From IMG/VR virus record IMGVR_UViG_2579778938_000006: DNA of 36,312 nucleotides; one strand, 5' to 3'. Each line of letters opens with the position of its first letter. The stretch's first letter is position 1. The notes beneath the pieces were generated by a model that was not told the origin of the DNA, did no database searches, and saw nothing but the letters and a program-made list of their open reading frames with translations. The translations under genes were made by a program, and so were the position numbers. The DNA is from a virus. Lineage: Duplodnaviria; Heunggongvirae; Uroviricota; Caudoviricetes. Shown in pieces: positions 1 to 25,791 of the stretch.

Positions 1-756
1 TTACGGGGTAATGCCAACCGCTGCCGCCACTTTGTCGCCACTAGTGCTTTGTTTTTCGAATTCATCTAAGGCTCTTTCAACATCAGAAAGATACTCTTTG
101 AATGAGTTCAAGATCATGCTTAACGAGCCCCCCATAAATAGGACCTGTTTTCCATCTTTTTTAAAAAAATCAGGATATTTTTCTATAAGTTCAATAATGC
201 TTTTAATATTTTGCCCGTCGTTTTCTAAGTATTTTGCATCATTATGCGCACAACTGTTTCTTAATTTTGTTATTTTTTTGATATTCGAATAGTGGGATGT
301 TGACTTCATCCCTATCATTTTTTTGATAAATAGATGGCTCCTCTCAAATCCACTTCCTTTGAGATCTGAAACATTTATAGGAGAATGATGTCTATTAGCA
401 AAGTTGTTACAGAATTTTTCTATTTCGTGTTCAAAAATTCCGAATATAGTTAAGAATACTGACCTGCGGATAATACTTGGGTAGTATTCTAAAAACATTT
501 CATCGAGATCTAGCGATGAGCTGGTGAGTCCCATGTAATGATCAATTGACTGGTATACACCATCTTCCGGAGATATTTCAATTATATATTCTTCAGGTCC
601 TTTGTCTTTATATTCTGCTATGCCCTTAGCGATTGATGATTCGCTATGAGTGATTAACGTCTCGATAATATCAAATGTTAAAGAGAAGTCGAATATTGGT
701 AATTGAAACAAAAACTTAACCATGCTTGAGCCTTTAAGAATCTGATTTAGTAACAT
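1..756 (-). CDS. Hypothetical cargo protein (~240-251 aa) with RNxxAH (HEPN-like) motif; candidate Abi/defence or toxin protein
   Basis: AT-rich ORF downstream of int on the same strand; alternative start at 723 (MVKF...) has an AAAGG Shine-Dalgarno and avoids the overlap with int; contains LRNSCAHN; last codons cross the attL core. Confidence 0.55.
   Translation of the reverse strand: MLLNQILKGSSMVKFLFQLPIFDFSLTFDIIETLITHSESSIAKGIAEYKDKGPEEYIIEISPEDGVYQSIDHYMGLTSSSLDLDEMFLEYYPSIIRRSVFLTIFGIFEHEIEKFCNNFANRHHSPINVSDLKGSGFERSHLFIKKMIGMKSTSHYSNIKKITKLRNSCAHNDAKYLENDGQNIKSIIELIEKYPDFFKKDGKQVLFMGGSLSMILNSFKEYLSDVERALDEFEKQSTSGDKVAAAVGITP
19..40. repeat. attL: attL core candidate (cgctgccgccactttgtcgcca)
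   Basis: Matches 33458..33479 at 21 of 22 positions; lies just beyond the 3' end of int as in P2-like prophages. Confidence 0.6.
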
Positions 757-3103: not shown

Positions 3104-3619
3104 TTGACCATGTTTGATTACCAAGTTTCCAAACATCCACATTTTGATGAAGCCTGTCGTGCATTCGCACTGCGCCACAATCTGGTGCAACTGGCAGAAC
3201 GTGCAGGTATGAATGTGCAGATTCTGCGGAACAAACTGAACCCAGCTCAACCTCATTTATTAACCGCACCAGAAATCTGGCTGCTTACCGATCTGACTGA
3301 AGATTCAACGCTGGTAGATGGTTTTCTGGCACAGATTCATTGTCTGCCATGTGTACCGATTAATGAGGTGGCAAAAGAGAAACTGCCACATTACGTCATG
3401 AGTGCAACCGCAGAGATCGGGCGTGTTGCTGCAGGTGCGGTGTCTGGCGATGTAAAAACCTGTGCCGGTCGTCGTGATGCTATCAGCAGCATTAACTCTG
3501 TAACACGACTGATGGCGCTGGCGGCTGTTTCATTGCAGGCCCGTTTACAGGCTAATCCTGCGATGGCGAGTGCAGTTGATACCGTGACTGGCCTCGGTGC
3601 TTCATTTGGTTTGCTGTGA
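3104..3619 (+). CDS. cII: CII-like lysogeny-establishment activator (171 aa)
   Basis: Second gene of the early operon; size and position as 186 CII. Confidence 0.6.
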
Positions 3620-4433: not shown

Positions 4434-4660
4434 TGGCTGATGCAATGGATCTCGTACAGCAGCGCGTTGAAGAAGAACGCCAGCGCCATATCCGTGCTGC
4501 CCGTGCCAAAACACCGGGCGTGTCTCGCGTGCTTTGCATTGAGTGTGAAGCGCCAATTCCGCCAGCACGCCGCCGTGCCATTCCGGGTGTGCAGCTTTGC
4601 ATTACCTGCCAGGAAATTGCAGAGCTGAAAGGCAAACATTACAACGGAGGTGCTGTATGA
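4433..4660 (+). CDS. TraR/DksA-family C4 zinc-finger protein
   Basis: CIECEAPIP...(17 aa)...CITCQ pattern; P2 orf82-like position upstream of the replication gene. Confidence 0.7.
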   Translation: MADAMDLVQQRVEEERQRHIRAARAKTPGVSRVLCIECEAPIPPARRRAIPGVQLCITCQEIAELKGKHYNGGAV

Positions 4661-5514
4661 GCACCATCCTGAAATGGGCGGGAAATAAAATCGCCATTAT
4701 GTCCGAACTGAAAAAACACCTTCCTGCTGGCCCGCGACTGGTTGAACCTTTCGCGGGTTCCTGTGCTGTGATGATGGAGACGGATTACCCCAGCTATCTT
4801 GTTGCGGATATTAATCCTGATTTAATCAACCTCTATAAAAAGGTTGCTGCTGATTGCGAGGCGTTTATATCTCGTGCCAGAGCTTTATTTGAGGAAGCAA
4901 ACAGGGAGGTGGCTTATTACAACATAAGGCAGGAGTTTAATTACTCCACTGAAATTACTGATTTCATGAAAGCGGTATATTTCCTGTATCTCAATCGTCA
5001 TGGTTACCGTGGATTATGTCGCTATAACAAGAGCGGGCATTTCAACATTCCGAACGGTAATTATAAAAATCCGTATTTCCCTGAAAAAGAAATTCGCGCA
5101 TTTGCAGAGAAAGCCCAGCGTGCAACGTTTATCTGCGCAAGCTTTGATGAAACGCTGGCGATGCTGCAGGTGGGGGATGTGGTGTATTGCGATCCGCCGT
5201 ATGACGGTACGTTTTCCGGCTATCACACTGATGGCTTCACTGAAGATGACCAGTATCACCTGGCATCCGTTCTTGAACATCGATCATCTGAAGGTCATCC
5301 GGTCATTGTTTCTAACAGTGACACATCCCTGATTCGTTCGCTGTATCGCAATTTCACTCACCACTACATCAAGGCAAAACGCAGCATCGGCGTGTCGGCT
5401 GGCGAGAGTAAATCTGCAACAGAAATCATTGCTGTTTCCGGGGCGCGCTGCTGGGTGGGATTTGATCCTTCGCGTGGCGTGGATAGTTCTGCCATGTACG
5501 GAGTGCGTGCATGA
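4657..5514 (+). CDS. dam: DNA adenine (N6) methyltransferase, Dam family
   Basis: Motif I FAGSCAV and catalytic DPPY; N-terminal WAGNK; ATGA overlap with the upstream gene. Confidence 0.85.
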
Positions 5515-7925
5515 GCCATGATGATATGAACAACTGCAGCGGCTTTAACGAGGTCGCCGCAGCATTCTCATGGAACAGCCCGAAAAAGGCTATTAACCCT
5601 TATCTGGACCCGGCGGAAGTTGCGCCGGTTTCTGCGCTTTCAAACCTGATCACTCTGTACGCTGCCGATAACGAGCAGGAACAACTGCGCCGCGAGGCAC
5701 TGAGTGATCAGGTCTGGGAGCGTTATTTCTTTAATGAATCCCGTGATCCTGTCCAACGCGAAATGGAGCAGGATAAGCTCATTAGCCGGGCAAAGCTGGC
5801 GCATGAGCAGCAGCGTTTTAACCCGGACATGGTCATTCTGGCAGACGTTAACGCCCAGCCTTCCCATATCAGCAAGCCGCTGATGCAACGTATTGAATAC
5901 TTCAGCAGTCTGGGCAGGCCAAAGGCTTATTCCCGCTATTTGCGTGAGACGATTAAGCCATGTCTGGAACGACTGGAGCATGTACGCGACAGTCAGCTAT
6001 CCACTTCTTTTCGCTTTATGGCAAGCCATGAAGGGCTGGACGGCCTGCTGATCCTGCCTGAAATGAGTCAGGAGCAGGTGAAACGCTTGTCTACCCTTGT
6101 CGCTGCGCATATGAGCATGTGCCTTGATGCAGCTTGTGGCGATTTGTATGTCACCGATGACGTTAAGCCAGAAGAAATCCGCAAGACATGGGAAAAGGTG
6201 GCAGCGGAAACCCTGCGTCTGGATGTCATCCCGCCTGCGTTTGATCAACTCCGCCGGAAAAGAAACCGCCGTAAACCCGTGCCCTATGAACTCATTCCGG
6301 GTTCGCTGGCGCGTATGTTGTGCGCCGACTGGTGGTATCGGAAATTATGGAAGATGCGTTGCGAATGGCGGGAAGAGCAGTTGCGCGCTGTCTGCCTGGT
6401 CAGCAAAAAAGCATCTCCTTATGTCAGCTATGAAGCCGTGATGCATAAACGTGAGCAGCGCCGTAAGTCGCTGGAGTTTTTCCGTTCTCATGAACTGGTG
6501 AACGAAGACGGCGACACGCTGGACATGGAGGATGTGGTAAACGCCAGCAGCAGCAACCCTGCGCATCGCCGCAATGAGATGATGGCCTGTGTTAAAGGTC
6601 TGGAGCTTATCGCGGAAATGCGCGGTGACTGCGCCGTTTTCTACACCATCACCTGTCCGTCACGTTTCCATTCCACGCTAAATAACGGCAGGCCCAACCC
6701 GACCTGGACAAATGCGACGGTAAGACAAAGCAGTGATTATCTGGTCGGCATGTTTGCTGCATTTCGTAAGGCGATGCACAAAGCCGGATTGCGCTGGTAT
6801 GGCGTGCGGGTGGCTGAGCCGCATCATGACGGTACAGTTCACTGGCACCTGTTGTGTTTTATGCGCAAAAAAGATCGCCGCGCCATTACTGCTTTGTTGC
6901 GTAAGTTTGCCATTCGTGAAGACCGCGAGGAGCTGGGTAATAACACAGGACCACGCTTTAAGTCTGAGCTGATAAACCCGCGCAAAGGTACGCCAACAAG
7001 CTACATCGCGAAATACATCAGTAAGAACATTGACGGGCGTGGTCTGGCTGGCGAGATCAGCAAGGAAACGGGTAAATCCCTGCGTGATAACGCTGAATAC
7101 GTTAATGCCTGGGCGTCTCTGCATCGTGTTCAGCAATTCCGCTTCTTTGGTATTCCAGGGCGTCAGGCTTACCGTGAACTGCGGTTGTTGGCTGGTCAGG
7201 CGGCAAGGCAGCAGGGTGACAAAAAAGCAGGTGCGCCGGTACTGGATAACCCGCGCCTTGATGCCATCCTGGCTGCTGCTGATGCTGGCTGTTTTGCCAC
7301 CTACATTATGAGGCAGGGCGGCGTGCTGGTTCCTCGCAAATATCACTTGATCAGAACCGCTTATGAAATCAATGAAGAGCCGACCGCCTATGGCGATCAC
7401 GGTATTCGTATTTATGGCATCTGGTCACCCATTGCAGAGGGCAAGATCTGCACTCATGCAGTGAAGTGGAAAATGGTTCGTAAAGCCGTTGACGTTCAGG
7501 AGGCGGCAGCCGACCAGGGCGCTTGCGCCCCTTGGACTCGTGGCAATAACTGTCCCCTTGCTGAAAATTTGTACCAACAAGGGAAAGACAAATCAGCTGA
7601 TGGGGATACCAGAACGGATATCACCCGTATGGATGACAAGGAGTTGCACGATTACCTGCACAGTATGAACAAAAAAGAACGCCGGGAACTGGCTGCAAGG
7701 TTACGCCTGGTGAAACCGAAACGGCGTAGAGACTACAAACAGCGAATTACAGACCATCAACGACAGCAGCTCGTCTATGAACTGAAGTCCAGAGGATTTG
7801 ATGGCAGCGAGAAAGAGGTCGATTTACTCCTTCGCGGCGGCAGTATTCCGTCAGGAGCAGGCCTGCGTATCTTCTATCGGAACCAGCGTTTGCAGGAAGA
7901 TGATAAGTGGCGGGATCTGTATTAA
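5511..7925 (+). CDS. A: Replication initiation protein A (rolling-circle HUH endonuclease, P2 gpA family)
   Basis: 804-aa protein with HUH-like VHWHLL and tyrosine block [10 protein letters not shown]; position after the early regulators. Confidence 0.85.
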
Positions 7926-8078: not shown

Positions 8079-8267
8079 ATGCAGGACTATTTTTTGGAGT
8101 CTTTGAAGCTCCAGCGCATTGATTTTTTTCTTAAGCTTGTAGCGGCTAGTGAGTGTAGTGATGAAGAGAAGGGGCTGGCTCTGCAGTGGGTTTCTGAATT
8201 GACTGATGAACTCATGGCAAAAATCAGAAGCCACGAATACAACCGCTCAATGGATGTCATCAGCTGA
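8079..8267 (+). CDS. tum: Tum-like SOS-inducible small protein (candidate antirepressor N-terminal module, 62 aa)
   Basis: AGGAGGA SD; directly downstream of the LexA box; position of 186 tum. Confidence 0.45.
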   Translation: MQDYFLESLKLQRIDFFLKLVAASECSDEEKGLALQWVSELTDELMAKIRSHEYNRSMDVIS

Positions 8268-8277
8268 GGTGACTTTT

Positions 8278-8511
8278 ATGCGCATTGAAATAATGATCGA
8301 TAAAGAGCAGAAAATTAGCCAGTCTACCCTGGACGCCCTTGAATCCGAGCTTTACCGCAATCTGCGCCCCCTGTATCCCAAAACGGTAATTCGTATCCGC
8401 AAAGGTAGCTCTAACGGTGTGGAACTGACCGGACTGCAACTGGACGAAGAAAGAAAACAAGTGATGAAAATTATGCAGAAGGTGTGGGAAGACGACAGCT
8501 GGCTGCATTAA
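8278..8511 (+). CDS. DinI-family protein (77 aa)
   Basis: Translation MRIEIMIDK...LDALESEL...IRIRKG...ERKQVMKIMQKVWEDDSW aligns by eye with E. coli DinI (MRIEVTIAK...IDALAGEL...KQRISEILQETWESADDW). Confidence 0.75.
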   Translation: MRIEIMIDKEQKISQSTLDALESELYRNLRPLYPKTVIRIRKGSSNGVELTGLQLDEERKQVMKIMQKVWEDDSWLH

Positions 8512-9016: not shown

Positions 9017-10135
9017 ATGTATCTTTTCAAGTATTACCGTCCGGACTTCTTCTTCGAGAAAGCTATTCGTTATAATGAATTATATTTTTCCGCTCCTGCG
9101 CAATTGAATGATCCTAATGATCTCAATATAGATTATCGTTTTGATAATAAATTGAAATTATGGGATATTTTATTGCGTTCTCCTTGCGATAAATCCTATA
9201 AAAATTTGAGTCACATATTAGATTTGAGTAATTTGAATATACATAAGGGATTGAATCGTATTTTTAGAGGAAAAAAAATAAAAAGTAGCATTGAGTCATT
9301 AGATAGCCTGTTTGACTCACACGTTGATGAGATACGTAAGATCATAAATGATGGTTTACTACCTATCAATGTGATTAATTCCGCTATTTATGGGAATATT
9401 CCTGAACCACGCCAATTTTTGGTCTCACTTTGCGAGAACAGTATCAAAGAAAGGTTGTATAGGAAAATAGTTCCTGCAGTATTCAGTGTGTCATTTTCAG
9501 CTAATGCGTTAGATCGTATGATGTGGGCGCATTATGCTGCAGGCTTTAGTGGTTGTGTTGTGATTTATGAAACGCAGGATTTTAATATTAATGGCGTACC
9601 ACATCCTGGAATGAAGTTAAGAGAAAATTTATTTTCATCAGATAAAATTAATTTTCCAGTTAAGCCAATAAAATATAGTAATCAAGCTAAAGAGGTTTCA
9701 CTTCTAGACCCAAGCGCAAATGTTGCAGAGTTATTTTTAACTAAAAATAGATTTTGGAGATATGAAGCTGAATATCGAATGTTTATTCCAGAGGCAAATG
9801 CAGGAATAGGGAGTGAGCGGCATGTTCAAAGACACGTAAATCGAAATATTGGACATGTTTTTCATCATGATGCTAATGTTGTTAAAGGGATCATTTTTGG
9901 TCCTAGAATGTGTGAAATGAAAAAAGAAAGCATATGGAATTGTATCAAGTCAAATATGGAGAATTCAAATTCAACAATATGTTATTTTTTTGACTCTGAG
10001 TTATCAGCATCAGGAAAGATTACTATTTCAAAAGGGCAACGAGCGGAAAAAATGAAAAATTTCCCTTTGTTCAGGAACAAGTTAAGTCAGACGGAAATGG
10101 CTAAAGTTTTGAAGGAAATTGGCATTACGAACTAA
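9017..10135 (+). CDS. Hypothetical 372-aa cargo protein, DUF2971-like N-terminus; candidate anti-phage gene
   Basis: Very AT-rich; N-terminus LFKYYRPDFFFEKAIRYNELYFSAPAQLNDPNDL resembles the DUF2971 signature as I recall it; own terminator downstream; in the P2 old/tin hotspot position. Confidence 0.6.
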   Translation: MYLFKYYRPDFFFEKAIRYNELYFSAPAQLNDPNDLNIDYRFDNKLKLWDILLRSPCDKSYKNLSHILDLSNLNIHKGLNRIFRGKKIKSSIESLDSLFDSHVDEIRKIINDGLLPINVINSAIYGNIPEPRQFLVSLCENSIKERLYRKIVPAVFSVSFSANALDRMMWAHYAAGFSGCVVIYETQDFNINGVPHPGMKLRENLFSSDKINFPVKPIKYSNQAKEVSLLDPSANVAELFLTKNRFWRYEAEYRMFIPEANAGIGSERHVQRHVNRNIGHVFHHDANVVKGIIFGPRMCEMKKESIWNCIKSNMENSNSTICYFFDSELSASGKITISKGQRAEKMKNFPLFRNKLSQTEMAKVLKEIGITN

Positions 10136-10201
10136 CCTAACAACAGTGCATGCCTATGCTGCCTGAATTTGCATGACCGTTTGAGGATCGTTTTTGCTAA
10201 G

Positions 10202-10225
10202 GCCCGCCAGAACTGGCGGGCTTTT
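10202..10225 (+). terminator. Rho-independent terminator (GCCCGCC-agaact-GGCGGGC-TTTT)
   Basis: 7-bp GC stem, 6-nt loop, T-run; 67 bp downstream of the 372-aa gene stop. Confidence 0.7.
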
Positions 10226-10270
10226 GCGTGGATCAGGCACCTGCATGAAAACCACTACACAAAGCGGGCA

Positions 10271-10283
10271 GGCGTGGCGGGGA
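10271..10283. other. cos: cos-like motif GGCGTGGCGGGGA (possible cohesive-end site)
   Basis: Matches the first 13 nt of the P2/186 19-nt cohesive end as I remember it (GGCG[A/T]GGCGGGGAAAGCA); diverges after that. Confidence 0.3.
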
Positions 10284-10409
10284 TACGAGCGCGCGCTAGA
10301 AACGTTTACTGATATTCTTGTAGTACATTGCATTTTTCTTTTTTTATGTCATATCATTAGCCATTTGAATAGGACATTATTATCAATTTGTTGTCTCTGA
10401 GGATAAGTT

Positions 10410-12191
10410 ATGAATTTTGATGCAACACCACTAAATATAAAAAACATTCTATCTGTAAAACAAAGATATGTTATTCCTCGTAATCAACGTGAGTTTAGTT
10501 GGGAAAAGCTTCAGCTTGAAGAGTTATGGCAAGATATTGTCAGAAACATAAGGTTGAATGAAGATGGACAGAACTTGGAGTGTTCAGAATATTTTATAGG
10601 GACTATTGTTCTTTCTGGAGCAGATAGTGATGATGTATTAGAAGTGGTTGATGGACAACAACGATTTTCAGTTATTACTATATTGCTTTCATTAATATCG
10701 CGTAAATTGCGTTCCTTAGGGCAAGATTCATTAGCGGATGATATATTTAAAACATATATCGTTACTGTGAGTCCTACATTTAGCAGAAGCCAATTAGCTT
10801 CAAATGGTGAGACATTTATTGAAAAATTAGCAAAAAATAGCGATAGAACATATTTTAAGTTAAAATATCAAGATCGCGAAGAGCATCAAGTTGATGAATC
10901 TTGTGAAGAGGATGTACGTATAAGTTATGCAGGAATTTTTCTTTCTAGAAAACTAGGGAGGAAATCACTCTGTTCTGCATTGTTGCGAGATGGTGCAAAA
11001 CATTATAATAACCAAGATTATATATTTTGTTTGACTGCTGTATATAGAATGATTACCAATTATTTGAAGTTGGTAAAAATATCTGTAGGTAAGGAGGATG
11101 ATGCTTATGATATTTTTGAAGTGTTGAATGCTCGAGGGATAAACTTAAGTTCAATTGATTTGATAAAGAATAAAGTATTCCAAACTTGCACTCAAACATA
11201 TCCGGTAGATATTGCAAAAACAAAATGGGATTATATCGTTACTCAAATTGAGTCTAGGGATAGTAATAGCACTATTGCTGATTATATTAGAACGTGGTGG
11301 CTTTCTAAGTATAATTATATTGGAGAAGATCAACTTTATCGTGCTTTTAAACGTGAGATTCAAGATGAGAATACTTTATTGTCATCAGCATCATTTCTGA
11401 ACGAATTATATGATGATGTTGAATTATACTGTAAAATAATAGCGCCAAATACAGATGACTGGCCTCAACCTGATCAGCGTGAAATTTACAACTCGTTAAA
11501 AGCATTCGAGATTTTTAATGTGAGTATTCCTCGACCATTTGTACTCTCATTACTTAGAAAACGTAAAGAGAAACCGAGAGCCCTTACACAATCAATGCTG
11601 ATAGAATGTTTGAAGTCCTTAGAGTCATTTCACTTTAAGTTTAATGCAGTATGTCGTCTAAGACCATCTGGAATCGATGCAAAATATTCTGTATTAGCAG
11701 TAAGAATGAATAAGGCATTAAATAAAAGAGATGTTGAGGGTGTTATTAATGACGCGTTAGATTATTTTACACAGAAAGGGCCTTCAGAAAATATATTCAA
11801 ACAAGCATTTTCAAAGAATATTGTTTATACAAATAAAAAGTCTGGGCAAAGGAAGTTGATTGTTTATATTTTTGACAAATTGGAACGTATCAGACGAGGG
11901 ACACGAGAGTTAAAAATGGATATAGTTTCTTTGGAACACATATCATCTCAAAGCAAAACTAACGAGTCAGTCGTGGGTATGATTGGTAATTTACTACCAC
12001 TCTGTTTTTCACTTAATGAAGATTGCAAAAATTATGAGTTGCACAAAAAAATAGAATCTTATAAAAAATCTGATTTAAAATTAGTTACAGAGTTTGTTAG
12101 TGAGTCAGAAGCAAGAGAACATAAATGGGATGATTCATTAATAAAAGAAAGAACAGATAGCTTGGCGTTAGAAACGTTTGCTAAAATATAA
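10410..12191 (+). CDS. DUF262 (ParB-like/GmrS) + DUF1524 (His-Me finger/GmrD) fusion nuclease, 593 aa; GmrSD/BrxU-like type IV restriction candidate
   Basis: Motifs VIPRNQREFSWE, VDGQQRFSVI, FEVLNARGINLSSIDLIKNK (DUF262) and SLEHISSQ...GNLLPL...NEDCKN (DUF1524-like); AT-rich; GAGGA SD. Confidence 0.8.
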   Translation: MNFDATPLNIKNILSVKQRYVIPRNQREFSWEKLQLEELWQDIVRNIRLNEDGQNLECSEYFIGTIVLSGADSDDVLEVVDGQQRFSVITILLSLISRKLRSLGQDSLADDIFKTYIVTVSPTFSRSQLASNGETFIEKLAKNSDRTYFKLKYQDREEHQVDESCEEDVRISYAGIFLSRKLGRKSLCSALLRDGAKHYNNQDYIFCLTAVYRMITNYLKLVKISVGKEDDAYDIFEVLNARGINLSSIDLIKNKVFQTCTQTYPVDIAKTKWDYIVTQIESRDSNSTIADYIRTWWLSKYNYIGEDQLYRAFKREIQDENTLLSSASFLNELYDDVELYCKIIAPNTDDWPQPDQREIYNSLKAFEIFNVSIPRPFVLSLLRKRKEKPRALTQSMLIECLKSLESFHFKFNAVCRLRPSGIDAKYSVLAVRMNKALNKRDVEGVINDALDYFTQKGPSENIFKQAFSKNIVYTNKKSGQRKLIVYIFDKLERIRRGTRELKMDIVSLEHISSQSKTNESVVGMIGNLLPLCFSLNEDCKNYELHKKIESYKKSDLKLVTEFVSESEAREHKWDDSLIKERTDSLALETFAKI

Positions 12192-12197
12192 GTTCAG

Positions 12198-12218
12198 TGG
12201 CAGGTATAGTACCTGCCA
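12198..12218. terminator. Perfect hairpin (TGGCAGGTA-tag-TACCTGCCA) between convergent genes; possible bidirectional terminator
   Basis: 9-bp stem with 3-nt loop between the stop of the DUF262 gene and the stop of Q; no strong T-run. Confidence 0.4.
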
Positions 12219-12227
12219 TTATTCAAT

Positions 12228-13265
12228 TCACATACACTCCACAGAGTATTCACTGAATGAGATGATGTTTTTTTTAGCCCATTCATTAAGTTGCAGAATA
12301 TGTTTTTGAATTGGTAGTAACTCATTCATAACAAATACTTTCGCGGCCTTTTCCACATCCCCAAACCCCCCAACATTATTAGGCATAATCCCCATCATTT
12401 GCGGTGGCACACGATGCGCCGCCATCATGTCATCCCGGCTCACGTTCTTGATGTTTAGAAACTCATCCTTCGCCGCCACTTCTGACAACGGGATAATCTG
12501 AAGTCCGTCCTTTTTCCCGTTAGGCGAGTACATAAATAGGTTGCGGAAGTTACCTGGTCCTTTGGCGCTTTTCATCGCATTGCGGAGGTTGTTCACGTCC
12601 TCCTGGTTCTGCGCGGCATCGGTCATGTACATGATGAAGCCAGCATGACTGCCGTTTATGTAATACTTTCGACGGAACAGCGTGGCGGACTCATTGAGCA
12701 GGGCGGACGGAATAGCAGAAAGATAGCCGGGCAGGCCATAGATCTCCTGATTTATGTCCGGTTCCATCAGATGGAAAATGCTGCCTTTCGTGAACTGATA
12801 CGGCTGCGTAGTCATGCCGTATTGCACAAACCAGTAGGTATCCAGGTCTAATCCGCGTCGGGTGTATTTTGCCAGAGCAGGCTCAAGGGCGATAACTTCA
12901 CCGAACCGGTTTGTGCGTTTCTCCAGGTAGGCGTTACCAAATACCAGATAGTCCTGCACAAAACGCGAAAAAGCCTGCTGGCTGAGCAGCGGATGAGGGA
13001 TATAGGTACTGGTCAGAATGTTGCATTTCACCGCAATTGGTGAACTGTGGTGCACGGCAGCGCGGAAGGTGCGCGCCAGTCCGTCAAAGCTGACGGGCGG
13101 CTCATACCAGCGATCTGTCTGTACGCATTCCACATAGTCCAGCAGTTCTCGGCGGTCCAGAACAGGAACGGGATCGCCGAAGCTGAATACTTCGGCTGTA
13201 GTCTGGCTTTTAAGCTGGATCTGTTTCGTCGCCGCAGCGCGGTTTTTCTTACTCTTTCCCATCAA
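12228..13265 (-). CDS. Q: Portal protein (P2 gpQ)
   Basis: 345-aa ORF, P2 synteny (Q-P leftward, O-N-M-L rightward); overlaps the P stop. Confidence 0.85.
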   Translation of the reverse strand: MMGKSKKNRAAATKQIQLKSQTTAEVFSFGDPVPVLDRRELLDYVECVQTDRWYEPPVSFDGLARTFRAAVHHSSPIAVKCNILTSTYIPHPLLSQQAFSRFVQDYLVFGNAYLEKRTNRFGEVIALEPALAKYTRRGLDLDTYWFVQYGMTTQPYQFTKGSIFHLMEPDINQEIYGLPGYLSAIPSALLNESATLFRRKYYINGSHAGFIMYMTDAAQNQEDVNNLRNAMKSAKGPGNFRNLFMYSPNGKKDGLQIIPLSEVAAKDEFLNIKNVSRDDMMAAHRVPPQMMGIMPNNVGGFGDVEKAAKVFVMNELLPIQKHILQLNEWAKKNIISFSEYSVECM

Positions 13266-15028
13266 AAAATCTCCACAATATTGCTGGTATTGGCGGACTC
13301 GCCCTGCAGCGGTTCGTTAAACAGTGCGTGCATTGTTGCCCAGGCCAGATCGGCATGGCTGGTTTCTTCGCTGCGGCTGGCTTCATAGGTTGGGCGGTTG
13401 CCGCTGGCAGTGGTGGCGCGACGGATTGCCATAAAGGACTGCGCTATGTCGGTGTGCCCGGCGTCAAACTCTAGGCGGCGGTGGCTAATAATGTCGTAGG
13501 CCTTGAGTACCAGGGCGTTTTTAACGTTGGGGTTGTAGACAAACTCCCGGATGGCAGGAAAAAACGCTTTCACGTTCTCGTAAACCCCGTGACCGACGCC
13601 GGTTGAGTCGATACCGATATATGTCACGTTGTACTGTTCGGTCAGTTTTTTGATGGCGTCAGCCTGGGCGCGGAAGTCCATTCCGCGCCACTGGTGACGC
13701 TCAAGAATGCGGAACTTACCACCTGGCACGGCTGGCGGTGCCACCACCACGCATCCGGCGCTGTCGCCGTTCTGCGTACCTTTTGCCGGGTCATAACCGA
13801 TCCACACTTCGCGCCAGCCAAACGGGCGCAGCGCCAGTGCATGAAAGTCGGTCCAGACTTCCCAGCTGTCTACCATGCACGCCTGCAGCTCGCTGAGCGG
13901 GAATACGGACGCGAGATCGTCCACGAACTCACACATCAGCAGATTCTGGTATTCGTCCGGGCTGTACTCCATGCGCAACTGGTCAAGGTCGAACAGGTTA
14001 CATCCGCCGCGCACCGCATCTTCCACAGTGACTATCTGGCGGTACTGCCCGTCTGCGCACAGCAGGCCGGGGGCCAGATTGCTGTGGGACAGGTCGATGT
14101 CCACCTTATCGGCTTTGTTGCGCCCTCGGTTGAACAGCGCACCGGACCAGAACGGATAAGCACTGTGTGTCAGGCTGGATGGCGTGGAAAAATAGGTCTG
14201 TCGCCATTTTTTGTGAATAGCCATACCGGAAGCCACTTTGCGCAGCTCCTGGAATTTCGGTATCCAGAAATATTCATCCAGATACAGGTTGCCGTGGTAA
14301 CTCTGGGCCGTGCGGGCATTGGTGCCGAGGAAGTAAAGCGTGGCCCCGTTAGGAAGCACCATCGGATCACCTTTCAGCTCCACCTCGACTTCTTTGGCGA
14401 AATCGATGATGTACTGCTTAAAGACGTGAGCCTGTGCCTTACTGGCAGAAAGGAAAATCTGGTTACGTCCGGTAAGCAGGGCGTCAATCAGGGCCTCACG
14501 GGCAAAATAGAAGGTCGCGCCGATCTGGCGTGACTTTAGCAGGTTGCGGATGCGGTTGGTTTTTCCGGCTTCCCACCAGTGGCGCTGGTAGTTAAACATG
14601 GAGGAATGGAAAATTTCTTCCAGCTTCTCAATTTGTTCATCGGTGAAAACATTCTTTTCAGGCTGACGGCGTGGGCCTTTGTTGCGGTTGGCGACGTTAG
14701 GGTTTAAGTCGGCTTCGTTGCCGCCATTGTTAAACTTGCCGATCCGCGCGTGGCGTTCAGACTGGCGCGCCAGCAGGTCAATCTCTTTGAAATCTTTCCC
14801 TTCTTTGTGCTCCTTCATGATGAGCTGGCAGTAGCGTGCGGCGGTGGTGAGCTGCATCTGATCCAGCGGCCCATAGTCACCCCACTTGTCGCGTTTTTTC
14901 CAGCTGTGAACGGTTGCAACTTTCTCGCCCAGCATTTCAGCAATGCGGGCTACGCGGTATCCCTGAAAGTACAGCAGCATGGCCTGCCGACGGGGATCGA
15001 GATCTGCGGGTGTCAGTGTGGTGTTCAT
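13262..15028 (-). CDS. P: Terminase large (ATPase) subunit (P2 gpP)
   Basis: 588-aa ORF, synteny with Q; divergent from O. Confidence 0.85.
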   Translation of the reverse strand: MNTTLTPADLDPRRQAMLLYFQGYRVARIAEMLGEKVATVHSWKKRDKWGDYGPLDQMQLTTAARYCQLIMKEHKEGKDFKEIDLLARQSERHARIGKFNNGGNEADLNPNVANRNKGPRRQPEKNVFTDEQIEKLEEIFHSSMFNYQRHWWEAGKTNRIRNLLKSRQIGATFYFAREALIDALLTGRNQIFLSASKAQAHVFKQYIIDFAKEVEVELKGDPMVLPNGATLYFLGTNARTAQSYHGNLYLDEYFWIPKFQELRKVASGMAIHKKWRQTYFSTPSSLTHSAYPFWSGALFNRGRNKADKVDIDLSHSNLAPGLLCADGQYRQIVTVEDAVRGGCNLFDLDQLRMEYSPDEYQNLLMCEFVDDLASVFPLSELQACMVDSWEVWTDFHALALRPFGWREVWIGYDPAKGTQNGDSAGCVVVAPPAVPGGKFRILERHQWRGMDFRAQADAIKKLTEQYNVTYIGIDSTGVGHGVYENVKAFFPAIREFVYNPNVKNALVLKAYDIISHRRLEFDAGHTDIAQSFMAIRRATTASGNRPTYEASRSEETSHADLAWATMHALFNEPLQGESANTSNIVEIF

Positions 15029-17082: not shown

Positions 17083-17733
17083 ATGAGCCTGAGTCCCGCA
17101 CGGCAGCATCGCCTGCGCGTTCAGGCTGAACAGACCGCTCGCGAGGGTGGCAGTGTTCGCCACGCGTCGGGCTATGACCTGATGCTGCTGCAACTGGCGG
17201 AAGACCGCCGCCGTCTCAAGGGCGTTCAGTCCACGGTCAAAAAAGCGGAAATCAAGGTGGAACTGCTGCCGAAATACGCCGCCTGGGCAGAGGGTGTCCT
17301 GGCTGGCGGAGGCGCGCAACAGGATGACGTGCTGATGTACGTGATGCTGTGGCGCATTGATGCCGGAGATTATGCCGGGGCGCTGGAGATCGGGCGTCAC
17401 GCCCTGCGTCATGGCTGGGTGATGCCGTTGGGTAACCGCAACGTGCAGACCGTGCTGGCAGAGGAAATGGCAGACGCGGCGCAGAGCGCAATGCTTGCCG
17501 CCACCGGCTTTGATGCTGATCTGTTGCTGCAGACGCTGGAGCTGACTGACGGTCTGGATATGCCGGACCAGTCACGGGCACGTCTGCATAAAGCGATTGG
17601 CGCTGTCCTGAGTGAAAGCAATCCGGCTTCCGCCCTTAATCATCTCAACCATGCGTTACAGCTCGATCCCCGCTGTGGCGTGAAAAAAGACAAACAGCAG
17701 CTGGAGCGCAGACTGCGCAATGACAGCCGCTGA
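17083..17733 (+). CDS. M: Terminase small/endonuclease subunit (P2 gpM)
   Basis: 216-aa ORF following N. Confidence 0.8.
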   Translation: MSLSPARQHRLRVQAEQTAREGGSVRHASGYDLMLLQLAEDRRRLKGVQSTVKKAEIKVELLPKYAAWAEGVLAGGGAQQDDVLMYVMLWRIDAGDYAGALEIGRHALRHGWVMPLGNRNVQTVLAEEMADAAQSAMLAATGFDADLLLQTLELTDGLDMPDQSRARLHKAIGAVLSESNPASALNHLNHALQLDPRCGVKKDKQQLERRLRNDSR

Positions 17734-23445: not shown

Positions 23446-24043
23446 TCTGCTGCCACCGGGTTCAACACCACTGGAGCGCCGACTGGCGCAAACCTGCAGC
23501 GGGATTTCTGATCTGCAGGTGCCGCTGCGTGACTTGTGGAATCCGGCGACCTGTCCGGTCAGCTTCCTGCCTTATCTCGCCTGGGCGTTCTCTGTGGATC
23601 GCTGGGATGAGGGCTGGACTGAAAGCGTCAAACGTCAGGTGGTGAAGGATGCTTTTTATATTCATCAGCATAAAGGAACCACCAGTGCCGTGCGGCGGGT
23701 AGTGGAACCGTTCGGCTTCCTGATCCGCATTATTGAGTGGTGGCAGACCGGAGAAACACCGGGCACGTTTCGCCTGGATATCGGCGTGCAGGACCAGGGC
23801 ATTACTGAAGATACCTATCTGGAACTTGAGCGACTGATAAGCGATGCCAAACCATGTAGCCGTCACATGATCGGCATGTCCATTAACCTGCAGACCAGCG
23901 GCCCGCATTGGGTGGGAGTCGCCAGCTATCTTGGCGAAGAAATCACGATCTATCCGTATATCAACGAAACGATTATTTCCGGTGGCACCGCGCATGAAGG
24001 CGGGGCGGTCCATGTTATTGACACAATGAGAGTGAATCCATGA
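23438..24043 (+). CDS. I: Baseplate/tail protein I
   Basis: 201 aa; synteny. Confidence 0.85.
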   Translation: MNSLLPPGSTPLERRLAQTCSGISDLQVPLRDLWNPATCPVSFLPYLAWAFSVDRWDEGWTESVKRQVVKDAFYIHQHKGTTSAVRRVVEPFGFLIRIIEWWQTGETPGTFRLDIGVQDQGITEDTYLELERLISDAKPCSRHMIGMSINLQTSGPHWVGVASYLGEEITIYPYINETIISGGTAHEGGAVHVIDTMRVNP

Positions 24044-25791
24044 GCACAAAATTTTATACCCTGCTGACGGATATTGGCGCGGCGAAACTTGCCAGCGCCG
24101 CCGCGCTCGGTGTGCCTTTAAAAATTACCCATATGGCGGTCGGTGATGGCGGCGGAACATTGCCAACGCCGGACGCAAAGCAGACTGGGCTGGTGAATGA
24201 GAAACGCCGGGCTGCGCTGAATATGCTGTACATCGACCCGCAGAACAGCAGCCAGATTATTGCTGAACAGGTGATCCCTGAAAACGAGGGTGGTTGGTGG
24301 ATACGTGAAGTGGGCCTGTTTGATGAGTCCGGAGCATTGATTGCCGTGGGCAACTGCCCGGAAAGCTATAAGCCGCAACTGGCTGAAGGCAGCGGGCGTA
24401 CCCAGACCGTGCGTATGGTGTTGATTACCAGCAGCACGGACAATATCACCCTGAAAATCGACCCTGCTGTAGTACTGGCAACTCGCAAGTATGTGGATGA
24501 CAAAATATCAGAGCACGAACAGTCACGACGTCACCCGGACGCCTCGCTGACCGCAAAAGGTTTTACTCAGTTAAGCAGTGCGACCAACAGTGAATCCGAA
24601 ATACTGGCCGCAACACCGAAGGCAGTGAAGGCTGTATATGACCTTGCAGCAGGTAAGGCACCTGTCAGTCACACGCACCCGTGGAATCAGATAACAGGTG
24701 TACCTGCAGCCTCGCTGACGGTAAAAGGCACCGTGCAACTCAGCAGCGCCACTAACAGCACATCAGAAACGCAGGCTGCCACACCAAAGGCAGTGAAGGC
24801 GGCATATGACCTTGCAGCAGGTAAGGCACCTGTCAGTCACACGCACCCGTGGAGCCAGATAACGGATGTGCCTGCAGCTTCACTGACGGTAAAAGGCACC
24901 GTGCAACTCAGCAGCGCCACTAACAGCACGTCAGAAACGCAGGCTGCCACACCAAAAGCTGTGAAGGCTGTATATGACCTTGCCAATGGAAAACAACCTG
25001 CCGACGCCACGCTGACCGCACTGGCAGGCCTTGCCACTGCGGCAGACAAACTTCCGTATTTTACGGGGAATGATACAGCCAGCCTGACAACCCTGACTAA
25101 CGTTGGACGGAATATTCTGGATAAAGCAAGCACACAGGCGGTTATTCAATATCTTGGTCTGAGCGATGCAAGTGGATACGTTGGACGCTGGCTGAATACC
25201 CGGGTTTTCACCTCATCAGGTACGTACACCCCGACGCCAGGAACAAAACGGATCAGGGTCACAATAACTGGCGGCGGTGGCGGTGGGGGCGGCTGCAAGG
25301 CTATATCCAATAATGAAACGTTTTTCGGTGCTGGCGGTGGGGCCGGTGGAACAATAATTTCAATAATGACCCCGACACAGAATAGTTATCCAGTCACTAT
25401 CGGCGCAGGTGGGGCCGGTGGTGTTAGTGCGACGTACGGCATCAATGGCGGTAATAGCTTATTCGCATCGTTAATTGCTCCTGGTGGCGCAGGTGGCGGG
25501 AAAGTGGGAGTTACAAATACAAACGGCGGTAACGGAGGTGTGCCGAGTACTGGCGATATCCGCATCACTGGTGGAAATGGAGGCGACGGTCAGTCCGGAA
25601 ATATCAGCGTCAGCGGTGAAGGCGGAACATCGTACTGGGGTGGCGGTGGACGCGCAGGCGCTGGCGGTGGCGTTAGCGGTAAGGCATATGGTTCAGGCGG
25701 AGGTGGTGCATACGATGCCGGTTATAGCGGAACCAGTATGACGGGCGGGAAAGGCGCTGCAGGGATTTGTATTATCGAGGAGTTTGCATAA
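24040..25791 (+). CDS. H: Tail fibre protein H with tandem 56-aa repeats and a glycine-rich C-terminal domain
   Basis: N-terminus MSTKFYTLLTDIGAAKLA typical of P2 H; 168-bp tandem DNA repeats; C-terminal GGxGG-rich ~190 aa ending GICIIEEFA. Confidence 0.85.
   Translation: MSTKFYTLLTDIGAAKLASAAALGVPLKITHMAVGDGGGTLPTPDAKQTGLVNEKRRAALNMLYIDPQNSSQIIAEQVIPENEGGWWIREVGLFDESGALIAVGNCPESYKPQLAEGSGRTQTVRMVLITSSTDNITLKIDPAVVLATRKYVDDKISEHEQSRRHPDASLTAKGFTQLSSATNSESEILAATPKAVKAVYDLAAGKAPVSHTHPWNQITGVPAASLTVKGTVQLSSATNSTSETQAATPKAVKAAYDLAAGKAPVSHTHPWSQITDVPAASLTVKGTVQLSSATNSTSETQAATPKAVKAVYDLANGKQPADATLTALAGLATAADKLPYFTGNDTASLTTLTNVGRNILDKASTQAVIQYLGLSDASGYVGRWLNTRVFTSSGTYTPTPGTKRIRVTITGGGGGGGGCKAISNNETFFGAGGGAGGTIISIMTPTQNSYPVTIGAGGAGGVSATYGINGGNSLFASLIAPGGAGGGKVGVTNTNGGNGGVPSTGDIRITGGNGGDGQSGNISVSGEGGTSYWGGGGRAGAGGGVSGKAYGSGGGGAYDAGYSGTSMTGGKGAAGICIIEEFA
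24541..24990 (+). repeat. Tandem 168-bp repeat (~2.7 copies) inside tail fibre gene H
   Basis: Units begin at 24541, 24709 and 24877 with a few substitutions; encode ASLTxKGxxQLSSATNSxSExxAATPKAVKAxYDLAAGKAPVSHTHPWxQITxVP. Confidence 0.85.

Follow-up and report, generated by a model that had tools for sequence, protein, structure and literature searches.

The block between positions 10146 and 10296 of the 36,312-nucleotide stretch of DNA analysed here (the window) is very probably the functional cos site of an apparently complete Fels-2-like Escherichia coli prophage, cut by the prophage's own terminase. It is a real but ordinary feature of an already known kind, a P2-family cos between swappable cargo genes, and its importance beyond correct annotation is small. 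Its recognition fixes the expected start and end of the virion DNA of this prophage, and places the two defence-type genes on either side of it as the two halves of a well-known cos-proximal hotspot.

The preliminary description of this DNA had noted a 13-nucleotide match to the beginning of the P2/186 cohesive end, and the reference records bear this out. The plus strand reads GGCGTGGCGGGGA at 10271–10283; the P2 record annotates cosL as GGCGAGGCGGGGAAAGCAC and the 186 record annotates cos as GGCGTGGCGGGGAAAGCAT. The predicted 19-nucleotide, 5′-protruding cohesive end of the window, GGCGTGGCGGGGATACGAG, is collinear with both annotated sites. It matches the 186 cohesive end at 15 of 19 positions overall, the first 13 nucleotides being the same, and that of P2 at 14 of 19; the positions at which the window is unlike P2/186 are 14, 16, 17 and 19 of the overhang. 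The match to the annotated cos of phage SEN8 is complete (19/19), the cos features of both SEN8 and phage Cartapus being labelled ‘putative’ and assigned by homology. The literature that could be searched yielded no experimental end-mapping for GGCGTGGCGGGGATACGAG.

With up to one mismatch allowed, GGCGTGGCGGGGA is unique on the two strands of the whole 36-kb window; 0.05 matches are expected by chance, and a match was obtained in 5 of 100 shuffled sequences at the same threshold. No second cos-like site was present in the window, either with the 13-mer at ≤1 mismatch or with a degenerate 19-mer at ≤3 mismatches. Two-mismatch matches to the 13-mer at 5471, 26701 and 31150 were rejected, as they fall inside genes and are without cos flanks.

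The window was compared with SEN8 (a Salmonella phage, genus Felsduovirus), Cartapus (an Escherichia phage, genus Elveevirus), both Fels-2-like Peduoviridae, and with 186, P2 and P4, the six sequences being aligned by anchoring on the 19-mer. All six display a (G/T)TGCAT(G/T) repeat cluster about 100–125 bp left of the 19-mer, TGCAT(G/T)AAAACC about 29 bp left of it, AAGCGGGC(A/G) directly on its left and (C/T)GCGCGC directly on its right. A G+C-rich hairpin about 50–70 bp left of the 19-mer is found in five of the six, P2 being without it. P2 and P4 agree at 52 of 55 positions over the 29 + 19 + 7 bp that make up the core; its limits were set here from this P2/P4 identity and equated with the ‘55-bp core’ that citing papers credit to Ziermann & Calendar (1990). 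Over this core (10242–10296) the window matches SEN8 at 54 of 55 positions, Cartapus at 53, P4 at 44, 186 at 43 and P2 at 41. The flanks align as well as the overhang. As the similarity spans the whole 55-bp core, the match reflects homology and not a chance 13-mer. Within the left flank, TGCATGAAAACC...AAGCGGGCA in the window is the counterpart of TGCATTAAAACC...AAGCGGGCG in P2 and P4; on the right, the CGCGCGC of the window is also that of P4, whereas P2 and 186 have TGCGCGC. Taken together, this comparison identifies 10271–10289 as the cos of the prophage, and homology predicts that cleavage would occur there.

An alignment of 64 loci from different species displayed a sharp conserved block at 10146–10296, with nothing conserved outside it. 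The parts of this block, together with the neighbouring features, are collected in Table 1. Equivalents of its (G/T)TGCAT(G/T) repeats lie at the same distance from cos in P2, 186 and P4, and the TGCATG repeats of the left flank are candidate terminase-binding elements. The hairpin at 10199–10226 folds as RNA with −24.5 kcal/mol (z = −4.3; none of 200 shuffles was equally stable), sits where phage 186 has its annotated terminator t95b, and is kept in relatives with differing sequences. Alignment columns of the inverted pair at the left edge of the core are ≥90% conserved, and its first heptamer (10233–10239) is the exact reverse complement of 10160–10166.

Table 1. Coordinates of the predicted cos region and of neighbouring features in the window.
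Feature	Position	Strand	Remarks
Left-slot cargo gene, 372 aa	9017..10135	+	Pfam DUF2971 at threshold (E 4e-4); PADLOC candidate PDC-S31 (E 2e-23)
Distal left flank	10146..10190		Conservation begins abruptly at ~10146 (64 loci)
GTGCATG	10146–10152		Distal left flank; candidate terminase-binding repeat
TGCCTGA (consensus TGCATGA)	10160–10166		Distal left flank; candidate terminase-binding repeat
TGCATGA	10170–10176		Distal left flank; candidate terminase-binding repeat
GGATCG	10185–10190		Distal left flank
Intrinsic-terminator-like hairpin, GGCCCGCC-AGAACT-GGCGGGC-TTTT	10199..10226	+	Closes rightward A/DinI/cargo transcription unit
Inverted pair TCAGGCA-CC-TGCATGA (consensus TCATGCA-GG/CC-TGCATGA)	10233..10248		Left edge of 55-bp core
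P2/P4-type cos core, 55 bp	10242..10296	+	~29 bp left + 19 + 7 bp right
Predicted 19-nt 5′-protruding cohesive end	10271..10289	+	In register with the P2 cosL and 186 cos annotations
CGCGCGC	10290..10296	+	Right flank of predicted bottom-strand nick; last conserved cos bases
Cassette-borne, AT-rich leader of GmrSD gene	10297..10409	+	Outside cos; no conservation in relatives; GC 0.28
Right-slot cargo gene, GmrSD-family (DUF262 + DUF1524) type IV restriction-like, 593 aa	10410..12191	+	
Hairpin TGGCAGGTA-TAG-TACCTGCCA	12198..12218		Between convergent GmrSD and Q; direct reading
Portal gene, P2 Q homologue	12228..13265	−	Pfam Phage_portal
Terminase large subunit, P2 P homologue	13262..15028	−	Pfam Terminase_5, Terminase_6N, Terminase_6C
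Terminase small subunit, P2 M homologue	17083..17733	+	Pfam Phage_term_smal, 3e-40

To the right of the 19-mer conservation is short. The CGCGCGC heptamer is near-invariant among 58 aligned loci, relatives that are alike on the left side diverge mutually at +7 to +10 past the 19-mer, and nothing is conserved across relatives between +8 and Q. Read directly, the reverse complement of this heptamer, GCGCGCG, resembles the left nick flank GCGGGCA, and the two nick flanks thus appear quasi-symmetric. The leader that follows has 100% identity with E. coli J3, where the same cargo is present, and contains no plus-strand promoter call reaching 9/12 (10297–10409). The cos forms an island of GC 0.53 between AT-rich cargo cassettes with a GC of about 0.30–0.35. 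A structured RNA was considered for this region and rejected: Rfam gave nothing at E ≤ 1 for 9900–10600, and the RNAalifold covariation term was about 0 over 58 loci. A 68-aa ORF overlapping cos (10194–10400) was also rejected as a gene, because it crosses the junction between conserved and non-conserved sequence at 10296. In its behaviour the cos region is a terminator combined with a double-stranded site for recognition by protein.

Two further observations concern the left flank. The substitutions 10163 A>C and 10236 T>G together change TGCATGA/TCATGCA to TGCCTGA/TCAGGCA, and the two arms, which bracket the hairpin, are still exact reverse complements. This paired allele represents one evolutionary event, being found in loci L125 and L212–L214 and in 26 E. 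coli genomes, and single-sided heptamer variants occur in loci L014 and L054; the paired change is for these reasons not taken as evidence of structure. At 10174–10190 relatives keep two GATC (Dam) sites, ATGATCG...GGATCG, the first of which is GACC in the window; the prophage encodes its own Dam-type methylase (4597–5514).

The cos has the arm for replication and accessory genes (A, DinI/Tum, cargo) on one side and, on the other, the divergent operons Q-P and O-N-M for packaging and capsid, the gene order being A (5511–7925), DinI (8206–8511), cargo, cos, cargo, Q, P, O, N and M. The whole set comprises int, a 186-type CI, CII, Dam, A, DinI, Q, P, O, N, M through D, and ogr, with the host genes ybjL and ybjM directly after ogr. 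The portal protein is 94% identical to that of Cartapus, 87% to that of SEN8 and 60% to that of P2. The large terminase shares 99.3% of 583 aa with that of SEN8 and is 99.5% identical to the part of the Cartapus enzyme that was compared, both terminase genes are full-length as judged from their domains, and the large subunit is the enzyme expected to cut this cos. The gene content points to a Fels-2-like (Peduoviridae) E. coli prophage that is apparently complete, though less surely so at its left end, as attL was not found in the window. At the window's left edge, a 251-aa ORF without a Pfam match (1–756, minus strand) lies outside the integrase gene (734–1921), whose start it overlaps. This ORF may belong to the host, or it may be cargo of the minor slot between int and att that has been described (PMC13586616). 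Within the tail-fibre gene (24040–25791), three tandem 168-nt repeats, 74–87% identical, are present at 24574–25000.

The prophage might nevertheless be defective apart from cos, through a missing attL or a regulatory or tail defect, in which case the site would be intact and never used. Such a defect would fit the finding that no credible attL or att direct repeat linking the int side to the ogr side is present within the window, and most of the prophage genes were assessed by ORF length and domains. Against it, all the expected P2-family genes are full length, ybjL/ybjM follow ogr directly and near-identical modules occur in many strains. A defect of this kind is, on balance, improbable.

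If the site is functional, as we favour, the terminase (the products of 13262–15028 and 17083–17733) would recognise the cos region on circular phage DNA, binding the left-flank repeats and the core. The top strand would be nicked before 10271 and the bottom strand after 10289, and this stagger would leave 19-nt 5′ overhangs of GGCGTGGCGGGGATACGAG. The conserved recognition sequence would consist of about 125 bp left of the 19-mer and 7 bp (CGCGCGC) on its right. Because only these 7 bp are conserved on the right, any insert would presumably be tolerated from +8, which would make cos a fixed divider of two independently exchanged slots, DinI-to-cos (with the 372-aa DUF2971 gene) and cos-to-Q (with the GmrSD gene). 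Three elements of this scheme are predictions: where the nicks fall, that the repeats serve in binding, and that this particular prophage can be induced.

The preliminary description had raised the possibility that the motif is degenerate and the prophage unable to package, that is, that a P2/186-type site has decayed by drift of its last six bases. The difference from 186 and P2 at 4–5 of 19 positions could be read in this way. Among 80 loci encoding relatives of the window portal protein, one genome per species, about 38 have the exact 19-mer GGCGTGGCGGGGATACGAG, in hosts that include Escherichia, Enterobacter, Citrobacter, Klebsiella, Pantoea, Tatumella and others (dozens of Enterobacterales species). 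In more distant portal relatives the overhang ends in CTACGAG or GTACGAG, and in one 186-like locus it ends in AAAGCAT. The 3′ third of the overhang thus follows phylogeny rather than decay, and is therefore a lineage variant; the part that is unlike P2/186 is invariant or near-invariant across the Fels-2-like lineage. Moreover, at least 120 IMG/VR contigs contain the 25-mer made up of the 19-mer and a following CGCGCG.

The same bases are found in two relatives that form particles. SEN8 is a plaque-forming temperate phage that was isolated as virions with lytic activity, and its authors give its cos as ggcgtggcggggatacgag (PMC5427200); its GenBank record begins at the first base of the cos 19-mer. 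Cartapus, a prophage of E. coli LF82, gave virome coverage above background and nuclease-protected genomes, with 3.3e5 encapsidated genomes/mL (PMC9928086), and carries the identical 19-mer, annotated as its (putative) cos. Both have the same left-flank repeats, the same hairpin and the same location of the site, between DinI-side accessory genes and Q, and both have unrelated sequence from +8 on.

Three substitutions in the window also speak for decay, each in the left flank at a base that is strongly conserved: 10163 A>C (A in 62 of 63 other loci), 10177 T>C (T in 58 of 63, with loss of a conserved GATC) and 10236 T>G (T in 56 of 63). These changes could lower packaging efficiency. However, out of 5426 complete E. 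coli genomes, 1249 match the 161-bp cos region and 26 carry the exact window allele, 100% identical and accompanied by differing right-slot cargo. This identity among genomes with differing cargo argues that the window allele is viable and not a dead end. With the cognate terminase intact and 99% identical to that of SEN8 as well, decay of the site is very unlikely, and the earlier suggestion of a degenerate cos does not stand; by sequence, the prophage has no visible packaging-site defect.

On either side of the functional cos proposed here lies a cargo gene that domain and model matches class as putatively defence-type. The left-slot gene is AT-rich (GC about 0.31), and other E. coli strains combine it and the same cos-flank allele with different cargo in the right slot. 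The 593-aa right-slot protein matches Pfam GmrSD_N (2e-32) and GmrSD_C (1e-11) and PADLOC HEC-06 (7e-75). The hairpin downstream of it occupies the position of the annotated terminator tQ of P2, just after Q. Given P2-type cleavage, the 372-aa gene would be the last at the right end of the virion DNA and the GmrSD gene the first at its left end, between cos and Q. The homology of the site to P2/186 cos and the functional relatives support this arrangement, with cargo at both virion ends, as had been proposed from the sequence at the outset.

The cos-to-Q interval had at the same time been called a less usual cargo slot, and here the comparison with relatives points the other way. The window has 1938 bp from the 19-mer to the Q stop codon. 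Among the species loci (n = 65) the corresponding distance is <300 bp in 10, 300–1000 bp in 9 and ≥1 kb in 46, with a median of 1656 bp; among the IMG/VR loci with an identical 25-mer (n = 85, among the matches listed) it is <300 bp in 9, 300–1000 bp in 15 and ≥1 kb in 61, with a median of 1697 bp. Cargo is thus present between cos and Q in 85–89% of relatives, with a median of about 1.7 kb, the IMG/VR part being among the matches listed. Across relatives, the IMG/VR part again among the matches listed, the right slot spans 148–5376 bp and the left slot 337–3676 bp. In the 58 IMG/VR loci among the matches listed that allowed measurement on both sides, both slots are occupied in 29, the right only in 25, the left only in 2 and neither in 2, which makes cos-to-Q the more often occupied of the two among those matches. 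In SEN8 the cos-to-portal interval is 2.2 kb and holds a hypothetical protein and an HNH endonuclease, with one gene on the other side of cos; in Cartapus it is 0.8 kb and holds a DUF4145 protein. The literature has in fact known this position as a hotspot since the 1990s: PMC5694545 cites Dodd & Egan (1996) and Nakayama (1999) for insertions between cosL and Q.

In phage lambda the terminase binds at cosB, to one side of the site that is nicked. It is conceivable by analogy that the cut site here is intact and that a terminase-binding part toward Q has been displaced by the 1.9-kb GmrSD insertion, with packaging impaired, the more so as the cos-to-Q distance is a mere 170 bp or so in P2 and 186; but this is hardly credible, since P2 and P4 have nothing in common beyond +7 and yet are both packaged by the P2 terminase, 85–89% of relatives (the IMG/VR part among the matches listed) carry unrelated inserts from +7 to +10, as do SEN8 (2.2 kb) and Cartapus (0.8 kb), and nothing from +8 to Q is conserved in relatives.

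The alleles on the two sides of the cos have different histories. E. coli J3 shares the GmrSD gene of the window, and against this strain there are zero mismatches for 3 kb rightward from the 19-mer; leftward, mismatches appear first at 10260, then at 10236, 10230, 10177 and others, and divergence is full left of 10145. Compared with three strains that share the DUF2971 gene (CFSAN061761, O68:H12 97.3 and ST95-32, whose right slots hold DprA, retron St85 or another DUF262), the left side is identical until 10064 and the right side diverges at 10296–10299. Since identity to J3 holds right of 10260 and identity to the DUF2971 strains holds left of 10296–10299, the crossover falls within 10261–10295. 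Read from these alignments, the window is a recombinant whose 35-bp crossover interval contains the cohesive end.

The identity of the left flank was also surveyed in 139 loci. When only the left cargo is in common, the 125-bp left flank has a median identity of 99.2% (131 pairs); when only the right cargo is in common it is 88.8% (28 pairs), and against a background of both cargos different it is 84.8%. It is thus the left cargo, not the right, that the flank accompanies, a descriptive result only, as the pairs are not phylogenetically independent.

Rousset et al. (2022) speculate that cut cos ends seed exchange (PMC9122126). In such a model, cut cos ends of two co-resident P2-like genomes would anneal or ligate, and cargo would thereby be exchanged; the junction and flank pattern fit such an exchange. 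That the cohesive end itself, and not ordinary homologous recombination, is the exchange point for defence cargo is a tentative and somewhat doubtful proposal. The only long invariant run is about 35 bp, the core itself, and RecA-type exchange confined to this invariant core explains the junction and flank pattern equally well.

Some individual loci and the satellite question deserve separate mention. Locus L160 (IMGVR_UViG_3300011853_000021) has two copies of the 25-mer in opposite orientation, at 3441–3465 (minus) and 6704–6728 (plus), 3.2 kb apart; this double cos could reflect a misassembly, adjacent elements or an inversion. In the prophage of E. coli O68:H12 97.3 (locus L213), which has the same DUF2971-cos module as the window, a group II intron reverse transcriptase/maturase lies at 973–2460, at the 3′ end of the A region. 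As regards P4-like satellites, 112 of the 120 contigs among the exact-25-mer IMG/VR matches listed are phage-type (Q, P or A nearby), and psu, sid, delta and alpha were found near the exact 25-mer in none of these 120.

Overall, the organisation proposed for the window closely resembles that of known P2-family systems. P4, which is packaged by the P2 terminase (PMC9122126), has the left-flank repeats in common with P2 and nothing beyond +7 on the right; the P2/P4 homology stops 7 bp right of the 19-mer, exactly like the block in the window. In P4 the variable genes gop, beta and cII start directly right of cos, which corresponds to the GmrSD side in the window. P2 and 186, unlike the window, have no cargo between cos and Q (167–176 bp), and the P2 cargo genes old and tin lie only on the non-Q side of cos. 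Rousset et al. (2022; PMC9122126) placed the defence hotspot of P2 in the cos-proximal region from gpA to gpQ, and this gpA-gpQ hotspot is borne out by a survey of 2026 (PMC13586616). It is likewise made up of variable, AT-rich, defence-type genes between A and Q adjoining cos. The published definition treats A-to-Q as one hotspot, whereas in the window and its relatives there are two slots; in Fels-2-like phages the ‘gpA-gpQ hotspot’ is in effect two slots parted by a 150-bp conserved cos block, and surveys anchored on cos could separate the two cleanly.
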